A stretch of 64,000 nucleotides of DNA from a bacterium (GTDB lineage: Bacteria > UBA8248). A model generated the notes under the pieces. It searched no databases. It was not told the origin of the DNA and worked only from the letters and a program-made list of their open reading frames with translations. Made by a program: the position numbers and the translations under genes. Shown here in pieces: positions 31,856 through 44,110 of the stretch (position 1 is the stretch's first letter; each line of letters starts with the position of its first letter). Location: positions 2,112,001-2,176,000 of the forward strand of contig OZ253442.1 in assembly GCA_965261085.1 (NCBI GenBank), given 5' to 3'.

Positions 31856-33361
31856 TCATTCATCGCCGGCCAGCGGGGATCGGCGGCGGGCGCCCCAGAC
31901 GACGACACCTGCGGCCAGCAAAATGAAGACGAGCGAAATAGGCCTGCGGACGAACAGGGAGAGGTCACCGTCTCCCATAATGAGCGATTGTCCGAGGGAA
32001 GACTCGAACGCCCGCCCCAGAATGAAGGTGATGATGAGGGGGGCGACCGGGAAATCGAATTTTCGAAGAAAATAGCCCACCACCCCGAAAACCAGCATCA
32101 CCTTCACGTCGAAGAAGCTGTTGTTCAGGGCGTATGTCCCCACCACGCAGAACGCCGCCACCACGGGGAAGACCGCCTTCTTCGGAAACCGCGCGATCAG
32201 GGCCACGTAGCGCAGGCTGAAGAACCCGAGTACCAGCATGAGGACGTTGCAGAGCAGCATGGCGATCAGGATGCTGTACACGATCGCGCCGTGATCCTCG
32301 AAGAGGCGCGGCCCCGGCCGGAGCCCCTGCACCATGAAGGCGGCGAAGAGCACCGCGGTCACGACGTCGCCCGGGATGCCGAAGCTGAGCAGGGGGATGA
32401 GGCTCGAGCCGTTGACCGCGTTGTTTCCGGTCTCGGCGGCGGCCACCCCCTCCAGCGATCCTTTCCCGAACCGCTCGGGCTCCTTGGACCCACGGTACGC
32501 CAGGCCGTAGGAGACGAACGCGGATACCACCTGACCCAGGCCCGGTATCGCGCCGATGATTGTGCCGACCACCGCCGAGCGGGAGATCGTCCGGCCGCAG
32601 CTCTTGAACTCCTCCAGGGTCAGGGGTTCGTTGCCCTCGGCTTGCCACGCGGTCTTGTGCTTCTCGTCCTCGGTGTTTCGCTCCTCTCGGGACCTCTCTG
32701 CGTAGAGGAAGATCTCCGAGAGCGCGAAGATTCCGATAAGCATCGCGATGAACGAGATTCCCCCGGTCATGTCCACCGAACCGAAGGTGAAGCGCCGCAC
32801 CCCGATCAGGGGGTCGAGGCCGACCGAGCTCAGAAATAGCCCGAGGGCGGCGGACATCAGCCCCCGAATCACCGAGCGGCCCGTGACGCAGCTGATGATG
32901 GCGAAGCTGAATACGAAGATGGCGAAATATTCCGGGGGGCCCACCAGGATGGCGACCGCCGCGATGGCGCCCGCGATGAAGATGGTGACGAGATCGCTGA
33001 AAGTGTCCCCGATGACGGAGGAATAAAGAGCCATCTCGAGGGCCTTTCTCGCCTTTCCCTGCTGGGCGAGGGGGTAGCCGTCCAGGACGGTGGCCGCGGC
33101 CGCGCCCGTCCCCGGAGTGTTGATCAGGATCGCGGGTATCGAACCGCCGAATATCGCTCCCTTCGTGATGGCCAGGAGGAAGGGAATCCCCAGAACGGGT
33201 TCGACGAAGAAGGAGATCGGCAGCAGAACCGCCACCGCCATGGCGGCCGTGAGGCCGGGGAGGCCGCCCACCACGATCCCCAGCGACATTCCGAGCGCCA
33301 GGACCGCGAGCACGTCGAAGCGCAGGCACAGGAGCAGGCCTTGCGCCAGCTGGGCCCACAT
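31856..33361 (-). CDS. tctA: Tripartite tricarboxylate transporter large permease
   Basis: GGLPGL, GGSIPAILINTPGT, DGYPLAQQG, GAIPGLG, EGVAAAETGNNA, GIPGD. Confidence 0.95.
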   Translation of the reverse strand: MWAQLAQGLLLCLRFDVLAVLALGMSLGIVVGGLPGLTAAMAVAVLLPISFFVEPVLGIPFLLAITKGAIFGGSIPAILINTPGTGAAAATVLDGYPLAQQGKARKALEMALYSSVIGDTFSDLVTIFIAGAIAAVAILVGPPEYFAIFVFSFAIISCVTGRSVIRGLMSAALGLFLSSVGLDPLIGVRRFTFGSVDMTGGISFIAMLIGIFALSEIFLYAERSREERNTEDEKHKTAWQAEGNEPLTLEEFKSCGRTISRSAVVGTIIGAIPGLGQVVSAFVSYGLAYRGSKEPERFGKGSLEGVAAAETGNNAVNGSSLIPLLSFGIPGDVVTAVLFAAFMVQGLRPGPRLFEDHGAIVYSILIAMLLCNVLMLVLGFFSLRYVALIARFPKKAVFPVVAAFCVVGTYALNNSFFDVKVMLVFGVVGYFLRKFDFPVAPLIITFILGRAFESSLGQSLIMGDGDLSLFVRRPISLVFILLAAGVVVWGARRRSPLAGDE

Positions 33362-33362
33362 T

Positions 33363-33845
33363 TTAGAAGACCCCGCCCGAAAGTCTGCCCTCCGGCAGCA
33401 CGACGCCCAGGAAACGTTCGAAGAAGACCCAGATGAAGAGCGGGGTGAGCAAAGCGATTAACGCGAGGGTCCGCCATTCCCGCAGCCCGAGCTGAAAGGC
33501 GAACAGGGCGACCGCGACGAGGGTGGCGGGTAGCATCCCGAACCACTCGACGAGAAGGATGTAGAGGGCGAAGGTGGCGACCGGCACCAGGGCGCGGGTC
33601 CGAAGCGGCCCGCCGGGAGGGCCCTCACTCCCGGCGGAGGGGGAGAACCAGTTTCGCGCGGCCATCAGGGCGGCCATGAGCGCCAGAAAGGAGAGGGCGA
33701 GAAAGGGAAAGGCGCTGGGCGGGAACGGGATGGTCCGCTCCCCCACCTTGCGGGTCAGCACCTGGCTGGGTATCAGCGCCAGTCCGGCCAGGCTGATGAC
33801 GAGAACGGCAAGCCCGACCCACGTCTCCCATTGGAATCGCTTCAC
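33363..33845 (-). CDS. tctB: Tripartite tricarboxylate transporter small permease
   Basis: Four to five TM helices, P.AFP motif, C-terminal FERFLGVVLPEG, adjacent to tctA. Confidence 0.88.
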   Translation of the reverse strand: MKRFQWETWVGLAVLVISLAGLALIPSQVLTRKVGERTIPFPPSAFPFLALSFLALMAALMAARNWFSPSAGSEGPPGGPLRTRALVPVATFALYILLVEWFGMLPATLVAVALFAFQLGLREWRTLALIALLTPLFIWVFFERFLGVVLPEGRLSGGVF

Positions 33846-34389: not shown

Positions 34390-35424
34390 TCAGGCGCGCT
34401 GCCCGGCCGCGGGGCGCTGGAAATGGGGGAGGACTTCTTCGCCGAGCAGCCGAATCGAGTTGAGTATCTTGCCGTGATCAAGCCCTGGAAACTGAATGCG
34501 GAAGTGCATGGAGGTCGTTCCGAGTTCCTCCTGATATCGTTTGATCTGGCGAATGCAATCATCCGGCGAGCCCACAATAAAGCGCCGGCGAAGATTTTCC
34601 ATAGCTTCAGCGCCCTGCTTCACCGGCCTCCCCTCGTCGTCCACCAAATGCCCCCAATCAAGATACTCCTGGTAGTTATAGAGCATGGGTTCTCGCGCCT
34701 CCTCCCAAGCTCGCTCGCTCTCTTCGGCCACGTAGGCTTCGCGTCTCAGGGGGAACTCCACCTGGGATGCGTCCTTCCCCGTCTCGGCCAGGGCATCGAG
34801 ATAGACTTGTTTTCGCTCCTTGAGCACCTTGAGCGGCGTGACCGGATCGGCGAGCCATGCGTTTCCCATGCGTGCGGCGCGGCGGATAGCGGCGGGCAGC
34901 TTGGCCGCCACCCAAATGGGAGGGCATGGCTTCTGCACCGGGCGAGGCATGAGGGTGACATCCTCCATGGGAAAGTAAGGGCCCGTGTGTGTCACGCCCC
35001 GCTCCGTCATTAACCGGCGAACCAGTCCGAGAGCCTCCTCAAAACGGGCGGCCCGTTGCTCGAAAGGAACATTAAAAGCCGCGAATTCCTCCCGCCTGTA
35101 GCCGAGTCCCACCCCCAGCACGAAGCGGCCCCGGGACATGATGTCCAGGACCGCGGCGTCCTCGGCCACCGCCAGCGGGTGATAGAAGGGAAGGAGGAGG
35201 ACGCAGGTGCCGATGCGCATCTTCTCCGTCCGGGTAGCGATGCCGGCGCAGGTCACCATGTTGGAGGGAAAATAGCCGTTATCCTCCACCATGTGGTGTT
35301 CGCTCGTCGTCACCATGTCGAAGCCGTACTTCTCCGCCAGGGCGATCTGCTCCAGGGAATTGTGATAGGCATCCACCCAGTGCCCAGTGCGAGACTGATA
35401 GCTGTAGTGCAAGGCGAACTTCAT
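34390..35424 (-). CDS. Luciferase-like (LLM) flavin-dependent oxidoreductase
   Basis: AEKYGFD..SEHH, IATRTEKMRIGT, HPLAVAEDAAVLD, GRFVLGVGLGY, PRPVQKPCPPIW. Confidence 0.93.
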   Translation of the reverse strand: MKFALHYSYQSRTGHWVDAYHNSLEQIALAEKYGFDMVTTSEHHMVEDNGYFPSNMVTCAGIATRTEKMRIGTCVLLLPFYHPLAVAEDAAVLDIMSRGRFVLGVGLGYRREEFAAFNVPFEQRAARFEEALGLVRRLMTERGVTHTGPYFPMEDVTLMPRPVQKPCPPIWVAAKLPAAIRRAARMGNAWLADPVTPLKVLKERKQVYLDALAETGKDASQVEFPLRREAYVAEESERAWEEAREPMLYNYQEYLDWGHLVDDEGRPVKQGAEAMENLRRRFIVGSPDDCIRQIKRYQEELGTTSMHFRIQFPGLDHGKILNSIRLLGEEVLPHFQRPAAGQRA

Positions 35425-35587: not shown

Positions 35588-37003
35588 TCAAGATTCGATC
35601 GTGTATTTGGACAGGACGCCCCCGGACTTGCCGCGCGGGACGAACTGGCCGTAGCCCGGTTGTTGCATGAGCTCACCCTCCCGGAGGACCACCTTTCCGC
35701 GCAGGAGACTGAGCTCCAGCCGGCCGCTAAGCTCCCATCCCTCATAGAGCGTGTAATCGGAATTCGTGTGCTGCCCCGCCGCCGTCACGGTCGAACGCCC
35801 ATCCGGGTCGATGACGACGAGGTCGGCGTCGGAGCCGACGAGAAGCCCTCCTTTCTGCGGGTAGAGACCCAGGGCGCGCGCCGGATTCTCACTCGTGAGC
35901 TGCACGAGGCGCTCGGCCGAAATCCTCCCGCGGGCAACGCCCTCGCTGAAGAGAACCGGAAGGAGGGTCTCGATGCCGGGAGCCCCGAAGGGCGCTTCGG
36001 TGAAGGGCGGGTCATTCTTCTGCGCCTGGCTACAGGGGGCGTGATCGCTCCCGATGACGTTGATCCATCCGTCCTGGATGCCCTTCCAGAGAGCGGAGAC
36101 GTCCGCCTCCTCCCGCAGCGGAGGCGCCACCTTGGCCAGGCTTCCCCGCTCCCGCACGGCCGCCCCCGTGAGGGTCAGATACTGCGGGCAGGTTTCCACG
36201 ACGATGTCCTTCCCGGCCGCCAGCGCGCGCCGCGCCTCATCGAGGGCTTGCGCCGCCGTGAGGTGGACGATGTAAAGCGGGCAGCCCGCAAGATCCGCGA
36301 GGTGGATCGACCGCGCTACCGACTCGGCCTCCAACTGGGGCGGGCGTGTGTATTCCAGGAATTCGGCGCCGTCCATTCCGGCATCGAGGGCCTTGTTCTC
36401 CAGGTAGTCGATGACCAGGCCGTTTTCGGCGTGGACGAGCACGGTGCCGCCATGACGCCCCACGATATCGAGCGCGGCGTAGAAGTAGTCGTCCGGGATG
36501 CATCGGCCGCGGCCCCGCTTTCGGTAGCCCATCATGACCTTGAAGGTGGTGACGCCGCTATCGATGGCCTTGGGGATCTCGGCGAGATACTCGAAATCCT
36601 CGAAGATCCAGGCGTGCAGCGAGAAGTCGATCACGCTCTGCGCTTCGCCCTCCTCGCGGCAACGCTGCAGCGTGGAGAGCATGGTCTCATTCTCCTCGCC
36701 CGTGGCGAAGGGAACCATGGTCGTGACTCCTCCGTGCGCGGCGCTCCGCGCAACGTCGGACAGGGAATCGACATGGGAGGAGTACGCCCTGAAGTGGACA
36801 TGGGGGTCGACGACACCCGGAAGAATGAGCTTGCCCGGCACCTCCAGGACCTCCTCGGCGGCGGGCATACTTTCCGGCGCGCCCACACAGGCGACCCTCC
36901 CGTCTCGAACGCCGAGAGCAGCCTCCTGCCGGCCGTGACCGGATACGATTGCGCCGCCTTTCACGAGCAGGTCGAGCGGTTTCTGCTGGGACCTATCTGT
37001 CAT
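35588..37003 (-). CDS. Cyclic amidohydrolase (dihydropyrimidinase/hydantoinase/allantoinase-like)
   Basis: PGVVDPHVH, GGVTT, TTFKVMM, VHAEN, YIVHL, ETCPQYL, GSDHAP. Confidence 0.9.
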   Translation of the reverse strand: MTDRSQQKPLDLLVKGGAIVSGHGRQEAALGVRDGRVACVGAPESMPAAEEVLEVPGKLILPGVVDPHVHFRAYSSHVDSLSDVARSAAHGGVTTMVPFATGEENETMLSTLQRCREEGEAQSVIDFSLHAWIFEDFEYLAEIPKAIDSGVTTFKVMMGYRKRGRGRCIPDDYFYAALDIVGRHGGTVLVHAENGLVIDYLENKALDAGMDGAEFLEYTRPPQLEAESVARSIHLADLAGCPLYIVHLTAAQALDEARRALAAGKDIVVETCPQYLTLTGAAVRERGSLAKVAPPLREEADVSALWKGIQDGWINVIGSDHAPCSQAQKNDPPFTEAPFGAPGIETLLPVLFSEGVARGRISAERLVQLTSENPARALGLYPQKGGLLVGSDADLVVIDPDGRSTVTAAGQHTNSDYTLYEGWELSGRLELSLLRGKVVLREGELMQQPGYGQFVPRGKSGGVLSKYTIES

Positions 37004-37384
37004 GAAAACCTCCCTTGCGGACAGTCGCCGACGCCGGATGAAACAGCCGTTTCACGCCGGCTCCTCCTTTGTGAAATGACCCGGCCATGAAGCGGTAATC
37101 GAACTTTGATACTTCAACTGATTAAGACGCAGCATACTATATATCGCGGGCGCGCCAAAACCCGGGTGCATCCATTCGGTTTCTCAAAAATACAAATCAA
37201 TCGATAAAGAGGGGCCGAATACCGTTCTTGGGCGAGGCGGAAATCGGCAAGGCGGCCCTGCGCAAAGCTCTTATCGAAAGTGAGCAGTCCGTGGCCCGCA
37301 AACATACACAGGGCCGTTCGCGAACGGTGGGGCAGGCGCATAGGCGGCAGGCATGTATGTCCGCCCGTGCGATTTCTTTCTTTT

Positions 37385-38701
37385 TTAATACTCGAACACC
37401 GTGGGGCCGTCCACCTTTTCGGTCAGCGCCGCTACGGCCGCGCGGGCTGCGCCGAGGCGCCATTCGCGCTCGGCCTCGGGCGTCCGGGAGGGATCGCCGA
37501 AAGGATGGTGAAAATGTCCGGCGCGGTTGTTGACGATTCGGTTGACCCCGATGTCACGCGCCACGTCGGGCAGACAGGTGACGATGACGGTGGGGATGGC
37601 CTCCCGCTCCAAGGCTCTCGCCAGCGCAGCCCCGCTGCGCGTGCCGGTTCCTCACGTGGCGGGGAGGACGACGCCCTCGACCCCGGCCTTTTTGAGCTCC
37701 GCGGCCCAGGCGCGGCCGATGCCGTCCATCTCGGCGAAGGCGCCGCCGTTCCCGCAGGTGCTCAGAAAATCATCGTGGAGCGCGGCGATTTCGCCCTCGT
37801 TTTCTAACCGCCGGAAGGCGTCCACGGCGAGCATGCGGTCGGGCTCCTCGTTCACGAACACGGTGTTGAAGCCCCCGTGGATCGAGATGAAGGCGCCGCC
37901 CGGAAGGGCGTCTTTCCCCTCGAAGGAGTAGGTGGCCCAGTTCTCGTTCCTTGAGCCGGCGAAGCGATCCGGGTTGCCGGGGGGCACCATGCCGCCTTCT
38001 GATACGATGGCGATGCGGGCCTTTTTGAGATCGGCGATAGGCTTAGGCGGAGCTATCTCTTCCAGAACGGGCACTTCGAGTTCCGTCTCGTAGGGCTCGC
38101 CCTTGATTTTCTGGAGAACCATATCGACGGCGCGCCGCGAAGTCGGAAGCTCGGCGATTTCGTTGTAGCGGATGCCGCGCGGGAGGTAGCCATCGTCTGC
38201 GGCATTGCCGACCTCCTCGCCCCGGGCGAGCTTGAGCCCCAGGCGGGCGGCGGCTTCTAAGGCCTCTTCCATCCCGGCGGCGGACGCGGCTGCGGGGACG
38301 GTGTGAACGCTGATTCCGGCGGCGGGAAAGCCCGGATTCTCAGGGTGCATGGCGGTGACGACGGGAATGCCCGCCTCCTGCGCTGCGCGGCAGACGGCGG
38401 CGCAGGCGAGCCCGAAGCGCCCGGCGTTGAAAGCGGGCCCGGCGAGAACGAGATCGGGAGAAAACGCCATCACCAGCGCGATGGCCTCGGCGGCGCATGT
38501 TTTTTCATTCTCGGCGAAAAGACCGTCTCCCGCAAAGACGGTGCCGATGACTTCGGCGTCCTCGCCCAGGATTTTATCGAGCAATACGCCGGGGCCGACG
38601 GGGCCGGGCCGGGTGGATACGGGATGATCGCTTTTCTCCTCGCCCCCGACACCTGCGAAAAACTGGTTCAAGTAGTGAACGACCCGAAGTTTAGTGCTCA
38701 T
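37385..38701 (-). CDS. grdB: Glycine/sarcosine/betaine reductase selenoprotein B-like, 438 aa, Sec350 (UGA 37652-37654)
   Basis: RVVHYLNQFFAGVGGEE, AGPAFNAGRFG, MHPENPG, HGGF. An in-frame UGA joins 37652..38701 to 37385..37612: LPAT-U-GTGTRSGAALARALERE. Confidence 0.9.
37624..37640 (-). promoter_or_regulatory. Candidate SECIS hairpin of grdB
   Basis: GCGCAGC-GGG-GCTGCGC, a perfect 7-bp stem starting 11 nt 3' of the UGA. Confidence 0.7.
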
Positions 38702-38915
38702 AGCCTGGCCTCCTCGTATGAATTCCTTGAAACATATAGGAAATTACACGTGATTATATACTTAATAAAGTGAGCCTCAAGATGTATATTTCTTTGAATG
38801 GGTACTTTATCAACAATCAAAGGTAGAGAGTTTTTCATCGTAGTTCCTGATTCTGGTTTTTTTGTCGATGACCTGCCTGAGTTCATCAATGACCCTAGAA
38901 ATATCATCCCCCTGT

Positions 38916-39239
38916 TCAATTCGTTAGGTAGATAGTGCTTTCATCTGTCTTGCCGTCTTCTTTTAGTTTGTTATATTCGGCTTGCGGCATCGACTCTATA
39001 TGCGTGATAGTTTTGGACTTAACGACATGCTCTTTTTCGTTAAGTGACACGCTACGAGAATCTACTTGGTTGATGATATTGACAGTCGGCTGTTTCTCTA
39101 TCCCGTCAATTTTTTCGCGTAGTTCGCGAAACTGCTTCTTATGAAAGAGCCAACCAATCATCAAACCAACAGCCACAGCTATACCGTAGGATAGTGCTTC
39201 CCTTGCAATAAACTTGACCAACGATTCAGGAAGTTCCAT
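38916..39239 (-). CDS. AT-rich hypothetical membrane protein inserted in the grd cluster
   Basis: 107 aa with one TM helix (YGIAVAVGLMIGWLF), C-terminal QAEYNKLKEDGKTDESTIYLT. Lies in an AT-rich segment of about 38720-39360. Confidence 0.6.
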   Translation of the reverse strand: MELPESLVKFIAREALSYGIAVAVGLMIGWLFHKKQFRELREKIDGIEKQPTVNIINQVDSRSVSLNEKEHVVKSKTITHIESMPQAEYNKLKEDGKTDESTIYLTN

Positions 39240-39414
39240 GTTCTCTTACCACCAGTTGTGCCTAGCTTAGTCAAGTTTATAATCACGCATTCTTAAATCT
39301 GCAAAAGTAGGCGTGAAATTTGCTTTAGTTTTCAAAATACAATTCCCGCCAAACATTTTAGCCCCGTGTCGAACACCCGGCAGGGCGAATATCCCGATCA
39401 ACGATCCCCCAACC

Positions 39415-40710
39415 TCAGTACGCCTTGCCCACCATGTTGTTGATGTCCTTCGCCCACTCGCTGGCGTAGTAGTCGCTGTCGACCAGGGTAAAGGCCTCGC
39501 GGACGTTGCATCTCTTACCGTTGTAGAATTCGACGACCTCGGAGCCGATGACGCGCTCCACCGCAGGGGCGGCGATGCGCTCCCCCTGCATACCCTTGGA
39601 AATGACGGCGTCGGCCTCGGGCACATGAAAGACGAGCGGGAACTCGCCCGACCCCGGACGGCCCACCTCGTAGATGATCGGAACGGCGCTCACGCCCATC
39701 TGCTCGAGCGCCTGGACGGTGAGCCAGTAGTCCACCGTGGAGTTGCCGCCGCCCTCGAAGGCGAGAACCGCGCCGTCGGCCTTGAGGAGGGTGGCGAGCT
39801 TGGCCACGTATTGCGCCGAGCGCTCCTTGAGCGCCTGGTTGTCGTGGTGGCCGCGCGTGATGACCATGCCTGCGAAATTGAGGTCCACCCCGTGGCGGCG
39901 GTAGAGCTCGTATATGAGCGGCATGTTGCAGTGCAGATAGGTCGGCGCCTTCTGCTGCGTCTTGTAATTCGCCCCCACCACCGCGCCGTCGAGCATCTCG
40001 TTCGGGTGAATGAGCGTGGGAAGCGAATCCCCCAGATTTTTGCCGTACATGAAGGTCTGAACCATGGACGCCTGGTGCATGACCTGATCGACGAAAATCA
40101 CCCGGGGAAGGCCGGGGTCGACGTCGCCGATCTCGAACCTTTCCAAGCTAACGGGTTCGAGCTCCGCCGTGTGCGCGGCCAGCCGGGACGCCACCTTCAG
40201 CGTCGCCAGGCGCACGGCGTCGTCATGCGCTTCGTTCGAGGCGCCATCCAGCGGCTCATAGCAGGCGACGAGATTCGCGGTCTCTGAATTCGTGCAGTGC
40301 ATCGCACCAGGACCGGACATATCGATAATCCCCTCGCGAAAGCTCATGATGCCCGTCATGGGACCGAGGAAATGGGTGGTGCTGATGACGCACATCCCAG
40401 CGAGCTTGTGGGTGCGGCCTTGGCCTGCGGTCTTCGCCGGGCCGAGGAATCCGGGGAAAGCGCATGAGCGCCCGCTTACCTTGTAGAGAGGCTCCACCGC
40501 ATCTAAGACGTTGGTGATCCGCACCGAATCTCCCGGCATGGCGGCGTGAAAGCTGACATCCTTGAGCGTGCCGTCTTCGAGCGCCAGTTCACGGAGGGCA
40601 TCGGCATCCACGGTGAGCGTTTTATCCCGGTACGCGAAGCGCTTTCCGAGGATGATTTTTGATACGGGAAATATACCCATCTCCAATTTCATGGACATCA
40701 TCGCCTCCAC
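39415..40710 (-). CDS. Glycine/sarcosine/betaine reductase component B alpha/beta proprotein-like (GrdE/GrdG/GrdI family)
   Basis: PGDSVRITNVLDAVEP, FPGFLG, GQGRTHKLAG, EGIIDMSGPGA, PTLIHPNEMLDGAVV, EGGGN. The start may be one of the Met codons a few residues downstream. Confidence 0.9.
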   Translation of the reverse strand: MEAMMSMKLEMGIFPVSKIILGKRFAYRDKTLTVDADALRELALEDGTLKDVSFHAAMPGDSVRITNVLDAVEPLYKVSGRSCAFPGFLGPAKTAGQGRTHKLAGMCVISTTHFLGPMTGIMSFREGIIDMSGPGAMHCTNSETANLVACYEPLDGASNEAHDDAVRLATLKVASRLAAHTAELEPVSLERFEIGDVDPGLPRVIFVDQVMHQASMVQTFMYGKNLGDSLPTLIHPNEMLDGAVVGANYKTQQKAPTYLHCNMPLIYELYRRHGVDLNFAGMVITRGHHDNQALKERSAQYVAKLATLLKADGAVLAFEGGGNSTVDYWLTVQALEQMGVSAVPIIYEVGRPGSGEFPLVFHVPEADAVISKGMQGERIAAPAVERVIGSEVVEFYNGKRCNVREAFTLVDSDYYASEWAKDINNMVGKAY

Positions 40711-41162
40711 TACCTCGCCGTGCGCATTTCGGCGAGATCGCTTTCTATCTGCTCTAAATCGAGCACCATTTCCATCATGAGAAGTTTATCGGCGTACAGG
40801 TCCTCGGGAACCTGGGATCGCACCTTCTCCTCGAGGATGTGAAAAACGGGGAGTCCCAACGAGACTCCCGCCAGGGGCCCGGCCCAACTGGGGTCCCCGG
40901 TGGTCAGCGTTTCGGCCGCGAGCCGAAGGCCTTCACCGGGCATTCCCAATACCACCATCAAATTTTCCGGCCCGACCTCATCCGCAATCGATTTGATGGC
41001 GGCCTGGTTTTCCAAGTCCATGGCGCCAGCGGAGGTTCAGACGAAACACTCCGTCTTCTGGAATACGATCTCCGCTCCCGCCGCCTCGAGGCATTCGGCA
41101 ATCAGCGGACCGGGAACGCCGTCCCGCTCGCCCAGCGCAATCACCTTCTTGCCCTTGAACAT
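40710..41162 (-). CDS. grdA: Glycine reductase selenoprotein A, 150 aa, CxxU with Sec42 (UGA 41037-41039)
   Basis: [71 protein letters not shown]. The 5' half is missing from the ORF track because of the UGA. Confidence 0.95.
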
Positions 41163-41198
41163 GAATATCCTCCCGCTTGCTACAAAAAAACGAACGAA

Positions 41199-42617
41199 TC
41201 ATGCTTCTATCAATACCGAAGCCCCGTCGGCCTGCTGGGACATCCGGCCCAGAAACAGACTCCCTTTCGCCACCACCATTGTACTCTGAAGGTGGCCCGC
41301 CCGCATCCTCTTAAGAGCGTGGCCGAGAAAGGGAACGCCTGCGGGAATGTGCCCCTGCGTAGGCGCGAATCCGGGCATCCCGTGCGCCTCGATAAAATCC
41401 GGAATCTCCTCGCGGGCTATTTCCCCGCCCATGACCGCCATGGCGGCCAGCATTCTGTAATTCGTGGCCGCAACGTCTCCCGCCCCCGCAGGCAGCATGA
41501 CCTCGGGGTTATGCAGTTCGACGGCATACTTATCGACGCTTCTCAGCTTGCGCCCGGCCCGGGCCAGCGGGTCCCGCACCAGAGCCTCGGCCAACCCCTG
41601 GGGGGTGGAGGGCCTTCCCGCCGCGTGGCGACCCGCGATTTCAAGATTCACCCGGGGGCCGTCTTCCGAATTTTTAGTGAGAAAGAACGCCACCCCGCCC
41701 AATACGTCTTCGAGAACGGGCATCTCTTTTCCCAGATGGTAGTACGCCTTCATCCCGAGCTTCGCCATCGAACCGCCTCCTACGACGACGGCGTTTCCCA
41801 CGACACCCGCCTGAATGAGGGCCGCCGCGTGTATGAGCGCGTACACCGGCGCCGCGCAGAAAGACTTCACATCGACGCCGGCCGCATTCACGCAACCCGC
41901 CATCTCGGCGATTGCCTTGGCGAGATTGCCTCCGCCGCGATTGTAGCGATCTCCGACCGCCTCCTCGGAGCAACTGATGACGTACTCTATTACGTCCGGA
42001 GCGATGCTCTCCTGCACCAGAAGCCGGCTGAGAGCGTATGCGCCGCTGGCCTTGGCCGCCAAGTTTTCCAGAAGAATACGGGCATTGAGCGATTCGTCGG
42101 AATCATGATCGCGGCGAATGCACCCGATGAGTCCTTTATTCTGAAAAAGCGGCAGGGCCTCTCCTCGCTCGATGCGCCGGAAAATGTCTTCCTGGGGATA
42201 TTCCTTTGGGGGTTTTTCTGTTTTGAGAAGAGCGGAGGTGGATTCCGAACCTATGACGCCCGAAACATGACGCTCCTTGTTGCGCATGATCAATCCAAAC
42301 TGATCGGCCGCTTCGAGAAGGGAGTAGAAAGAATTCTGCGGGAGGATTTCCCCGAAAACGCCCTCAGGCGAAGCGCCTGCGAGGGAATTTTCGTACCACG
42401 GAGAAGGAATTTCATTCAACTTCTCGGGCGCGAGATTGCCGATGAAAACCTGGTTCGGCGCATAGCCGACCACTTCGTCAAAAGACCGCAGATTTGTGAA
42501 TACGTCGCCAGGCGCCTGATTGTTCCGGATAGCCTCGCGCCAGGGTTTCGAGCCGTAGCGAACCAGATCGGGAACATGAACGAGAACGTTCGCCGCCGCA
42601 CGTAAATACGCAGTCAT
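41199..42617 (-). CDS. grdC: Glycine reductase complex component C beta subunit
   Basis: YAPNQVFIGN, CSEEAVGDRYNRGGGNLAKAIAE, FCAAP, ELHNPE, GFAPTQGHIPAGVP, KGSLFLGRM. Confidence 0.93.
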   Translation of the reverse strand: MTAYLRAAANVLVHVPDLVRYGSKPWREAIRNNQAPGDVFTNLRSFDEVVGYAPNQVFIGNLAPEKLNEIPSPWYENSLAGASPEGVFGEILPQNSFYSLLEAADQFGLIMRNKERHVSGVIGSESTSALLKTEKPPKEYPQEDIFRRIERGEALPLFQNKGLIGCIRRDHDSDESLNARILLENLAAKASGAYALSRLLVQESIAPDVIEYVISCSEEAVGDRYNRGGGNLAKAIAEMAGCVNAAGVDVKSFCAAPVYALIHAAALIQAGVVGNAVVVGGGSMAKLGMKAYYHLGKEMPVLEDVLGGVAFFLTKNSEDGPRVNLEIAGRHAAGRPSTPQGLAEALVRDPLARAGRKLRSVDKYAVELHNPEVMLPAGAGDVAATNYRMLAAMAVMGGEIAREEIPDFIEAHGMPGFAPTQGHIPAGVPFLGHALKRMRAGHLQSTMVVAKGSLFLGRMSQQADGASVLIEA

Positions 42618-43147
42618 ATCACCCGCCAAAAAAGGAGGAAGGAAAGATTACACGAGCATTCGTACCGGAAATTACATGCCACATCATCTCACCCGGCAAA
42701 AACCATTCACCACGCGTTTTTTCAGCACCCGCCCTGTTCTTCAATAAACACATCCAGGCCAGGGCTTCATCATAAAGAAACGGGAATGATATGCGAAACG
42801 AACAAACTCTTTGCACTTCGATCTTTCATTTCGTTGAGCAGGTTACCGGCTCGCCCCGAGCTTCGCTCAGTCGGGATTGACCCGGCATTTCCCCGCATTT
42901 GCGCTTCTCGCGCGTGGCGGGGGTTTCGCTATGGTGGCGAAGCGAGCCGGCCCCTTCACGAAGACGGGGCGGGCGAATCTCTCGCAGCCCTCTCATGAGG
43001 AAGACTCGATGACAAGGCGTACTTCAAGCTATCCTTTCATGCGGACCCAGGCGGCGAGCCTCACGGGCTCCCTCATGGGGACGGGGCGGAGCGATGGAAC
43101 GGCCCCGAGGGGGAGGAGAGGTGAGGATTCGGAATTCCTGAAAAATA

Positions 43148-43192
43148 CGATAAAATTAGATAAATTCACGGGGTTTTTCGATAAATTTCTGA
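43148..43192 (-). promoter_or_regulatory. Conserved 45-bp intergenic motif, copy 1 (grdC/tal divergent region)
   Basis: CGATAAAATTAGATAAATTCACGGGGTTTTTCGATAAATTTCTGA is 41/45 identical to the reverse complement of 55723-55767. Confidence 0.7.
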
Positions 43193-43373
43193 AAATAAAT
43201 CGCCCGGAAGAAGCCTTGCAAGGTGTTGAAATACAATGATATTCAATCAAAATATGAGTGTATGCCGCTCAAATAAAAGACCGAAAAAAATTTAGCGTTC
43301 CGCATTTGCCCGCAAATCCGATGAGATGGGCGCAGTTCCCGGTATTATCCCGCAAATCCTCACCCCCCCCATG

Positions 43374-43401
43374 TTGACATTTGGGCGCAGTGGCGTAATC
43401 T
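43374..43401 (+). promoter_or_regulatory. Candidate sigma70 promoter of tal
   Basis: TTGACA-16 nt-TAATCT, 58 nt upstream of the ATG. Confidence 0.45.
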
Positions 43402-43459
43402 TCATAACAGCGGGGCATGACCCCGTGGGGGGGAATGAACACGTCCAGCGGGAGAGAAC

Positions 43460-44110
43460 ATGAAGATATTCATTGATACGGCGAACGTGGAAGAAATCAT
43501 CGAAGCGGCGTCCACCGGCATTCTGGACGGCGTGACGACGAATCCCTCGCTCATAGCGAAAGAGGGAGCGGACCACCACACGAGAATCAAGGAGATATGC
43601 GAGGTGGTCGACGGGCCGGTGAGTGCGGAGGTCATCGCCACGGAGGCGAACGAGATGGTCGAGGAGGGCCGTGAACTGGCCGCTATCCACGAGAACGTCG
43701 TCGTGAAGGTTCCGGTGGGCGTCGAGGGCCTGCGCGCCGTCAAGGCCATGCGCGAGGAGAACATCAACACGAACGTCACCCTCATCTTCAGCCCCGTCCA
43801 GGCCATGCTGGCCGCCAAGGCGGGAGCCTCGTTCGTGAGCCCCTTCGTGGGCCGGCTGGACGACATCTCGAGCCCGGGCATGGAGATGGTGGCCGACATC
43901 GTGCAGATCTTCGAGAACTATGATTACGCCACCGAGGTATTGGTGGCGAGCGTGCGAACGCCTATCCATTTGCTCGAAGCCGCGAAAATGGGAGCGGACG
44001 TAGCAACGGTGCCTTTTCAGGTGATTGCGCAGCTGCTCAAGCATCCATTGACCGATATCGGGTTGGAGAAATTTTTGGCGGATTGGCGCCGCGCCAATGA
44101 AATGCGCTGA
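43460..44110 (+). CDS. tal: Transaldolase / fructose-6-phosphate aldolase (short MipB/TalC type)
   Basis: [44 protein letters not shown]. Confidence 0.95.

Follow-up and report, generated by a model that had tools for sequence, protein, structure and literature searches.

Glycine reductase is, in the textbook view, an enzyme of Stickland fermentation that yields ATP by way of acetyl phosphate, the last step being carried out by GrdD. This protein (component C alpha) holds the acetyl group as a thioester and converts it to acetyl phosphate. The D-proline reductase PrdA/PrdB, a member of the same superfamily, performs a selenocysteine (Sec)-dependent reductive cleavage of a C-N bond for which neither GrdD nor acetyl phosphate is needed, and uses neither GrdA nor GrdC. 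Here we analyze a cluster of four genes, grdC, grdA, a grdE-family gene and a grdB-family gene, in a 64,000-nucleotide stretch of bacterial DNA, hereafter called the window (positions 2,112,001 to 2,176,000 of contig OZ253442.1, assembly GCA_965261085.1, GTDB lineage UBA8248). Coordinates without a prefix refer to the window, and all of its features described below lie on the minus strand. The cluster presents the same selenium chemistry in a respiring bacterium that has neither GrdD nor acetyl-phosphate enzymes. The reading that we favor, with a probability of roughly 0.55, is that it encodes a real four-gene, GrdD-independent selenoenzyme of the glycine reductase superfamily, which reduces an acetate whose alpha substituent leaves easily, and in which the acyl group is passed from GrdC to coenzyme A (CoA) or water, and not to phosphate.

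Two features of the substrate-specific B component are important for the comparison. The UxxCxxC motif of selenoprotein B (U, Sec) is named in PMC13188914. According to PMC10838667, the fluoroacetate reductase FarE/FarB of Cloacibacillus porcorum MFA1 has a FarB protein without the CxxC after Sec and a FarE protein without the pyruvoyl-forming cysteines, which is hence no proprotein; the loss of the pyruvoyl group is also described there for GrdI. The figure legends of the same article ascribe grdABCDEX and an acetate kinase to the organism with FarEB.

The four genes and the two UGA read-throughs listed in a preliminary description of the window were all recovered where that description had placed them, and they match the respective family models. 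The gene order is C-A-E-B, with grdA directly downstream of grdC. The grdC gene (41199..42629) encodes a thiolase-fold component C beta of 476 amino acids (aa) if translation starts at TTG 42629, or 472 aa if it starts at ATG 42617, which scores 576 bits with NF040746, well within the component C beta family (cut-off 450). The 150-aa selenoprotein A encoded by grdA (40710..41162, TGA at 41039..41037) is recognized by NF040748 (205 bits, cut-off 130) and PF04723 (204 bits); its CxxU motif is ECFVU, in the context ECFVU-TSAG. GrdA is near-identical in GrdD-containing loci, the sole distinguishing residue being E12 versus D. The grdE-family gene (39415..40710; 431 aa; PF09338, 351 bits) encodes a subunit of the substrate-specific B component, and the grdB-family gene (37385..38701) encodes a 438-aa selenoprotein B with Sec350 in PATUGTGTRSGA (TGA 37654..37652). 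The GrdB-like protein matches PF07355 with 398 bits, and the broad subfamily TIGR01918 (411 bits) is the only GrdB-type model whose cut-off it passes.

Neither grdD nor a trx gene was found within the cluster, in agreement with the preliminary description, and searches of the host genome (a single contig of 4.27 Mb, 96% complete) indicate that grdD is truly missing and not merely unlinked. The best genome-wide match to the GrdD hidden Markov model (HMM) NF040747 scores 19 bits and is PlsX. Similarly, tblastn of the whole genome with four genuine GrdD queries, recovered from metagenome loci and scoring 522-575 bits with NF040747, gave a best E-value of 0.006, again at PlsX, the single copy of which is the sole GrdD-like protein of the host. 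Acetate kinase (AckA), Pta and PduL gave no match in the genome with PF00871, PF01515 and PF06130. The missing trx had likewise been presented as a peculiarity of the cluster; it weighs little, because both TrxB (C1:580329, 362 bits, above the cut-off) and a thioredoxin (Trx; C1:2866590) are encoded elsewhere in the genome, whereas the absence of GrdD carries much weight. The host also has an AMP-forming acetyl-CoA synthetase (Acs; 1018 bits, above the cut-off) and haem-copper oxidase subunit I, and therefore acetate or acetyl-CoA can be respired. We found no account of GrdD-less systems in open-access literature text.

When species genomes were scanned with the GrdB-like protein, 25 related loci emerged, in metagenome-assembled genomes labelled as Nitrospinota, Tectomicrobia or Rokubacteria. 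The order C-A-E-B is observed in 19 of them and B-E-C-A in one, the other five being cut by contig ends. GrdD does not exceed its cut-off in any of 12 genomes of related loci. Of 51 genomes in the phylum of the host, 34 have GrdC above the cut-off, none has GrdD and one has acetate kinase. In a second phylum, to which the Rokubacteria-labelled locus belongs, GrdC is above the cut-off in 43 of the 201 sampled genomes, all 201 of which lack a GrdD match at E<=1e-20. Among metagenome sequences we compared the best 80 of 582 confirmed GrdC loci, ranked by likeness to the query GrdC alignment. In this set, grdC is followed by grdA in 51 loci, by grdD in 11 and by neither in 9 (with at least 1.2 kb of sequence), the following region being cut off in the remaining 9; no locus among the 80 has both grdD and grdA after grdC. 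The complete metagenome loci with grdD show the order E-A-B-C-D or A-E-B-C-D. Thus, the GrdD-less design is common in environmental bacteria, being present in most searched genomes of the host's phylum, in a fifth of those sampled from the second one, and in most of the best 80 of 582 metagenome loci.

The two kinds of loci also differ in GrdC. The phylogenetic tree of GrdC comprises 72 rows; fragments shorter than 1250 nt and the rows with stops (L068, L101 and L107) were left out, and from L044-L068 only L046, L054, L061, L065 and L067 were kept. A single clade holds all nine GrdD-partnered rows, with a value of 100 in the Shimodaira-Hasegawa-like approximate likelihood ratio test (SH-aLRT), the remaining rows being GrdD-less or unassigned. 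Comparison of the nine GrdD-partnered sequences with 67 other rows (positions in window numbering) revealed Arg at position 228 in 67/67, replaced by Ile or Met in 9/9 GrdD-partnered proteins; Tyr at position 229 (67/67) replaced by Asn (9/9); Lys at position 294 (67/67) replaced by Asn (9/9); and His at position 373 (65/67) replaced by Gln (9/9). Conversely, position 225 is Cys in all nine GrdD-partnered proteins and in none of the 67. The window protein has R228, Y229, K294 and H373 and no Cys225, and reads EEAVGDRYNRGGG, GMK and ELHNPE. Neither Cys258, which aligns with the nucleophilic Cys of FabH, nor the PTQGHIP motif varies in either set. The AlphaFold model of the window GrdC (predicted local distance difference test score, 82.6; predicted template modelling score, 0.90) has FabH, PqsBC, SpoVAD, OleA and thiolases as its best folds in PDB. 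A PDB sequence search matched GrdC to FabH around Cys258 only, and in hhalign of the GrdC alignment with the host FabH the aligned part was confined to residues 198-285 (probability 12.6), so that H373 and H427 are not placed relative to the FabH His and Asn. From the residue comparison we infer that R228, Y229, K294 and H373 may form an acceptor site, kept by the GrdD-less GrdC proteins and lost in the GrdD-partnered ones.

What is accepted at this site is the only point in which one rival explanation departs from the favored reading. It also dispenses with GrdD, with GrdC hydrolyzing the thioester and free acetate being then activated by the AMP-forming acetyl-CoA synthetase. The strong match to Acs (1018 bits) and the absence of acetyl-phosphate enzymes fit this scheme, as does a two-subunit CoA-transferase encoded directly after grdB in the related locus L065. 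However, it would waste the thioester energy and spend two ATP equivalents, and four conserved charged or polar residues in GrdC suggest a bound co-substrate rather than water. We regard hydrolysis as possible but rather unlikely.

The B component likewise diverges from the canonical form. The GrdB-like protein stays below the cut-offs of the equivalog models for GrdB (393 versus 602 bits), GrdF (412 versus 800) and GrdH (349 versus 775), and the best NCBIfam match of the GrdE-like protein is GrdG with 253 bits (cut-off 780); with the FarE model NF053623 it scores 126 bits (cut-off 675). After Sec the window protein reads U-G-T-G-T-R-S, that is UxxGxxS, both cysteines of UxxCxxC being gone. 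The sequence TSTU-GTCTRCG is present in eight of eight B proteins scanned from GrdD-containing loci, and [PT]ATU-G[TS]GTRSG in the window, in its paralogue from the same genome (L013), and in L065, L067, L087 and L132. The latter proteins constitute their own group with an SH-aLRT value of 92 in a 33-row GrdB tree, in which the window B component lies outside the groups of glycine, sarcosine and betaine reductase B proteins, GrdH/GrdI loci included. At the pyruvoyl site of the GrdE alignment, the canonical SGNC-VSAC corresponds to GANY--K in the window and SGNY--K in the paralogue, and the GrdI-type partners of GrdH (L111 and L123) have SGSF. As aligned, the window GrdE-like protein is without the Asn-Cys pyruvoyl-forming site. 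Thus, the altered active-site motifs pointed out in the preliminary description are borne out by the alignments, and they fit a different substrate, probably one other than glycine. A sequence search of PDB detected no solved relative of the GrdB-like protein.

The search of representative proteins for GrdB mostly gave Sec-truncated proteins, and full-length sequences from the loci were used instead. Four proteins of 774-798 aa (P0247, P0289, P0308 and P0315), which contain a C-terminal GrdB part up to the Sec position, look like GrdE-GrdB fusions. Three weak PF07355 (GRDB) matches in the host genome, C1:813395-813787, 320133-320534 and 505350-505658, score 23-43 bits and cover the C-terminus of the model only; they may be short GrdB/PrdB-like proteins.

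These properties of the B component also bear on the explanation that the cluster encodes an ordinary glycine, sarcosine or betaine reductase, with phosphorolysis performed in trans by an unlinked protein (for instance PlsX, a GrdD homologue) or by GrdC itself, and with acetyl phosphate as product. PlsX is indeed the sole GrdD-like protein of the genome, GrdA and GrdC are otherwise canonical, and the Arg, Lys, Tyr and His of GrdC could bind phosphate. On the other hand, the acetyl phosphate would meet no AckA, Pta or PduL to consume it, AckA being missing in 50 of the 51 genomes of the phylum, and the B component falls below all equivalog cut-offs, has no pyruvoyl Cys of the kind needed for glycine or sarcosine, and is not grouped with the GrdH/GrdI loci that handle betaine. 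This explanation appears unlikely.

Several observations indicate that the cluster is maintained. Both in-frame TGA codons, in grdA and at codon 350 of grdB, align with the Sec positions of their families, and the relatives retain the TGA together with a conserved open frame behind it. The machinery for Sec, proposed earlier as a check, is complete in the genome: selA, selB, selD and selC, the tRNA-Sec gene (C1:110882-110978), were all found. A hairpin of 7 bp with a GGN loop (37624..37640), resembling the selenocysteine insertion sequence, lies behind the grdB TGA, at +15 to +31 from its first base. In RNAalifold analysis of 11 sequences, its pair 18-28 is CG in five, UA in five and UG in one, and its pair 15-31 is GC in ten and AU in one. 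Single-sequence folds behind the two TGA codons are no better than shuffles (z -1.43 and -0.14, the latter for the grdB hairpin), and the grdA counterpart of the hairpin is weak; the informative fold is the alignment-based one of the grdB hairpin. The ratio of nonsynonymous to synonymous substitution rates (dN/dS) of the four genes is 0.09-0.17 versus L054 and 0.11-0.15 versus L061; all four are under purifying selection. RNA-library contigs from four runs of two studies overlie parts of all four genes with at least 93% identity, and one contig of 754 nt spans the grdC end, the whole of grdA and the grdE start; the uncovered parts, such as 41908-42975, are uninformative. A decaying and non-functional remnant could account for a foreign cassette between grdE and grdB and for the loss of GrdD. 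However, it is hard to reconcile with intact frames in all genes, dN/dS of 0.09-0.17, conserved in-frame TGA codons, a hairpin with compensatory changes, the order C-A-E-B in 19 of 25 related loci and RNA-library contigs on the genes, and we consider it highly improbable.

Beyond the cluster, one in-frame TGA is present in the SelD gene (C1:3459-4421) and another in an open reading frame (ORF) with a thioredoxin fold (C1:629266-629550), which suggests further selenoproteins in the host genome.

The mechanism that we propose under the favored reading would involve the GrdE-like and GrdB-like proteins as the substrate-specific unit, the carrier selenoprotein GrdA and the thiolase-fold GrdC. A carboxylate X-CH2-COO-, possibly imported via the nearby tripartite tricarboxylate transporter (TTT)-type system, would be bound by the B component. 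Since the GrdE-like protein has no pyruvoyl-forming Cys and the GrdB-like protein no CxxC, a Schiff base would not be formed and X would have to leave readily, as trimethylamine does from betaine and fluoride from fluoroacetate. Sulfonium, halide, sulfonate and ureido groups are further candidates for X; candidate substrates that suit this chemistry are acetates with a sulfonium or quaternary ammonium group, haloacetates, sulfoacetate and N-carbamoylglycine. Sec350 of GrdB would attack the alpha carbon, and the carboxymethyl group would then move to the Sec of GrdA. Closure of the Se-S bond by the GrdA Cys would place the two-carbon unit onto Cys258 of GrdC as a thioester. In place of the GrdD phosphorolysis to acetyl phosphate, GrdC itself would then pass on the acyl group, with CoA as our preferred acceptor and water as the alternative, and with R228, Y229, K294 and H373 as the putative acceptor site, and GrdA would be re-reduced by the housekeeping TrxB and Trx. 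Which class of substrate is reduced, what accepts the acyl group and how the four GrdC residues contribute are all inferred. Acyl transfer by GrdC alone had been suggested in the preliminary description, and the lack of AckA, Pta and PduL and the GrdC residues of the GrdD-less class fit it indirectly.

Several considerations weigh against this proposal. No GrdC is known to release its acyl group without GrdD. In the comparison with FabH, Cys258 is the only residue mapped, and the C-terminal half of GrdC stays unaligned in the profile comparison. The Arg, Lys, Tyr and His could equally bind phosphate or CoA. About 19 of the 67 rows in the residue comparison are closely related to the window, and the ratio of 51:11 between grdA and grdD after grdC is biased, because the 80 loci were chosen by likeness to the query; moreover, a metagenome contig leaves room for grdD elsewhere in the same genome. 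The sensitivity of the GrdD genome searches rests on the steady detection of PlsX at 18-35 bits, with no positive-control genome. In L109 and L137, both GrdD-less, SGNC is retained and the B protein exceeds the glycine reductase cut-off (627 and 628 versus 602 bits); a GrdD-less locus can thus have a canonical type of B component, and the two traits are independent of each other. The RNA-library contigs give neither strand nor level nor a single transcript, and may include DNA. Finally, the flanking genes differ among relatives, so the substrate is not pinned by genomic context.

The host genome contains a second, paralogous cluster (C1:1202842-1207400) composed of genes for an IclR regulator, grdA, grdC (556 bits), a grdE-like gene and a grdB-like gene with TGA, and also without grdD. 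It is directly followed by tctC-tctB-tctA, the whole stretch C1:1202842-1210700 corresponding to L013 9843-17691. The proteins of this cluster are 41-51% identical to those of the window. Downstream of the window cluster, tctB and tctA (31856..33845; PF07331 and PF01970) encode the membrane parts of a TTT-type transporter. Thus, genes of TTT-type transporters adjoin both clusters of the host genome, which suits an imported carboxylate. The preliminary description had suggested a reverse or assimilatory enzyme, by which an amino-acid-like compound would be built from an acyl donor. All that speaks for it is the unusual occurrence of a Stickland-type enzyme in a host that respires. The cluster is not adjoined by partner genes for a reductive glycine pathway, the uptake transporters beside both clusters point to catabolism, and we know of no reverse reaction for the glycine reductase enzyme family; with nothing found in its favor, this direction is barely credible. 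Taken as a whole, the earlier interpretation stands with respect to the missing GrdD and the atypical B component, and gives way in the trx argument and the direction of the reaction. It did not mention the second cluster, the broad distribution of the gene arrangement, the insert between grdE and grdB, or the published occurrence of both motif losses in FarEB.

Other neighboring genes are less informative. A hydantoinase/dihydropyrimidinase-type cyclic amidohydrolase (35588..37003) is encoded downstream of the window cluster and scores 392.1 bits with TIGR02033 (cut-off 393.25). Its link to the cluster is weak, since, the window apart, L044 and L061 are the only ones of the 25 related loci that have it close by. 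It is followed by a luciferase-like oxidoreductase of the F420/FMN class (34390..35424; PF00296, 228 bits; TIGR03619, 168 versus a cut-off of 167). Both genes are possibly linked to the cluster. A permease of the TauE/SafE family is encoded upstream of the second cluster on the opposite strand; speculatively, it hints at a sulfonated substrate. An accessory gene replacing GrdD, recurrent across lineages, was not detected in the flanks of L046, L061, L065, L067 and the loci with C-A only. An ORF of the MmgE/PrpD family directly follows grdC in L086 (2975-4372) and L092 (4346-5719) and is located upstream of grdC in L065 (852-2222); such an ORF is not found at the window cluster. Pairs of grdC and grdA without grdE or grdB within 8 kb were observed in L080, L096, L108, L138, L140, L144 and L145, and one soil-type clade of such orphan pairs is flanked by Macro-domain, NMT1/THI5-like, HAD and PNPOx-like genes.

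A candidate sigma-70-like promoter (42769..42797), matching 9 of 12 positions in a consensus scan only, is located upstream of grdC. No Rfam family, the glycine riboswitch included, was detected in 37000-43500 at E<=1, and therefore there is no riboswitch clue. The region between grdE and grdB is occupied by an insert of 687-713 nt (38726..39412) with a low GC content (0.41). It contains a 107-aa ORF (39239..38916) with a membrane-like product, for which no Pfam or NCBIfam match was found, and a candidate sigma-70-like site (38780..38753; consensus scan) just before grdB. In one RNA-library contig the insert is absent, 38725 being joined to 39413 with 687 nt skipped, and other contigs diverge at 38720. 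In 15 loci the grdE-grdB spacer is 43-165 nt long. Among L044-L059, it carries a DNA-methylase-like ORF and a 204-aa ORF in L044 and L059, a 247-aa ORF and a PIN-domain ORF in L045, L047, L057 and L058, and other inserts in L053, L055 and L056. In the host lineage, small cassettes of low GC content have a hotspot in this spacer.

The distribution of these genes allows for a broader, tentative scenario, to which we give well below even odds. The GrdC-GrdA pair without GrdD would represent a general and perhaps older form of the superfamily, by which respiring bacteria of soil, sediment and marine habitats convert various alpha-substituted acetates to acetyl-CoA via interchangeable B components. 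The clostridial system would then be a derived clade, which recruited a PlsX-like GrdD and lost the GrdC acceptor site (R228, Y229, K294 and H373). If GrdC alone discharges the acyl group, the mechanism of component C needs revision. In addition, annotation pipelines that name such genes "glycine/sarcosine/betaine reductase" would overcall their function, and a large set of unexplored reductive C-X cleavages, possibly of osmolytes, sulfonium compounds or halogenated acids, would lie behind this label.

Among the known systems, D-proline reductase differs in both its own subunits and its partners: the window proteins score 78 bits with PrdB (cut-off 300) and 30 bits with PrdA (cut-off 700), and the window has both GrdA and GrdC. 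The clostridial glycine/sarcosine/betaine reductase is similar to the window system in the CxxU of GrdA, the position of Sec in GrdB, a GrdE-family partner, and a full-length GrdC with a thiolase-type Cys. In contrast to it, the window host has no GrdD, AckA or Pta, no trx adjoins the cluster, and grdA takes the place of grdD after grdC; GrdC has R228, Y229, K294 and H373 instead of Ile/Met, Asn, Asn and Gln of the GrdD-partnered proteins, and the B component, below all equivalog cut-offs, is devoid of the pyruvoyl Cys and the CxxC. Betaine reductase is similar in one respect, as its GrdI-type partner is also without the pyruvoyl-site Cys. However, GrdH keeps UxxCxxC, its loci carry grdC-grdD, and the window protein scores 349 versus the cut-off of 775 with the GrdH model and belongs to another group on the tree. 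The window GrdE-like protein is not an ortholog of FarE either (126 bits with NF053623 versus the cut-off of 675), and the window host has no GrdD or AckA, whereas C. porcorum MFA1 has both according to the figure legends of PMC10838667. Nevertheless, both motif losses described for FarEB in that article are seen in the window B component. FarEB acts on an alpha-substituted acetate whose substituent leaves easily, so that no Schiff base is needed.

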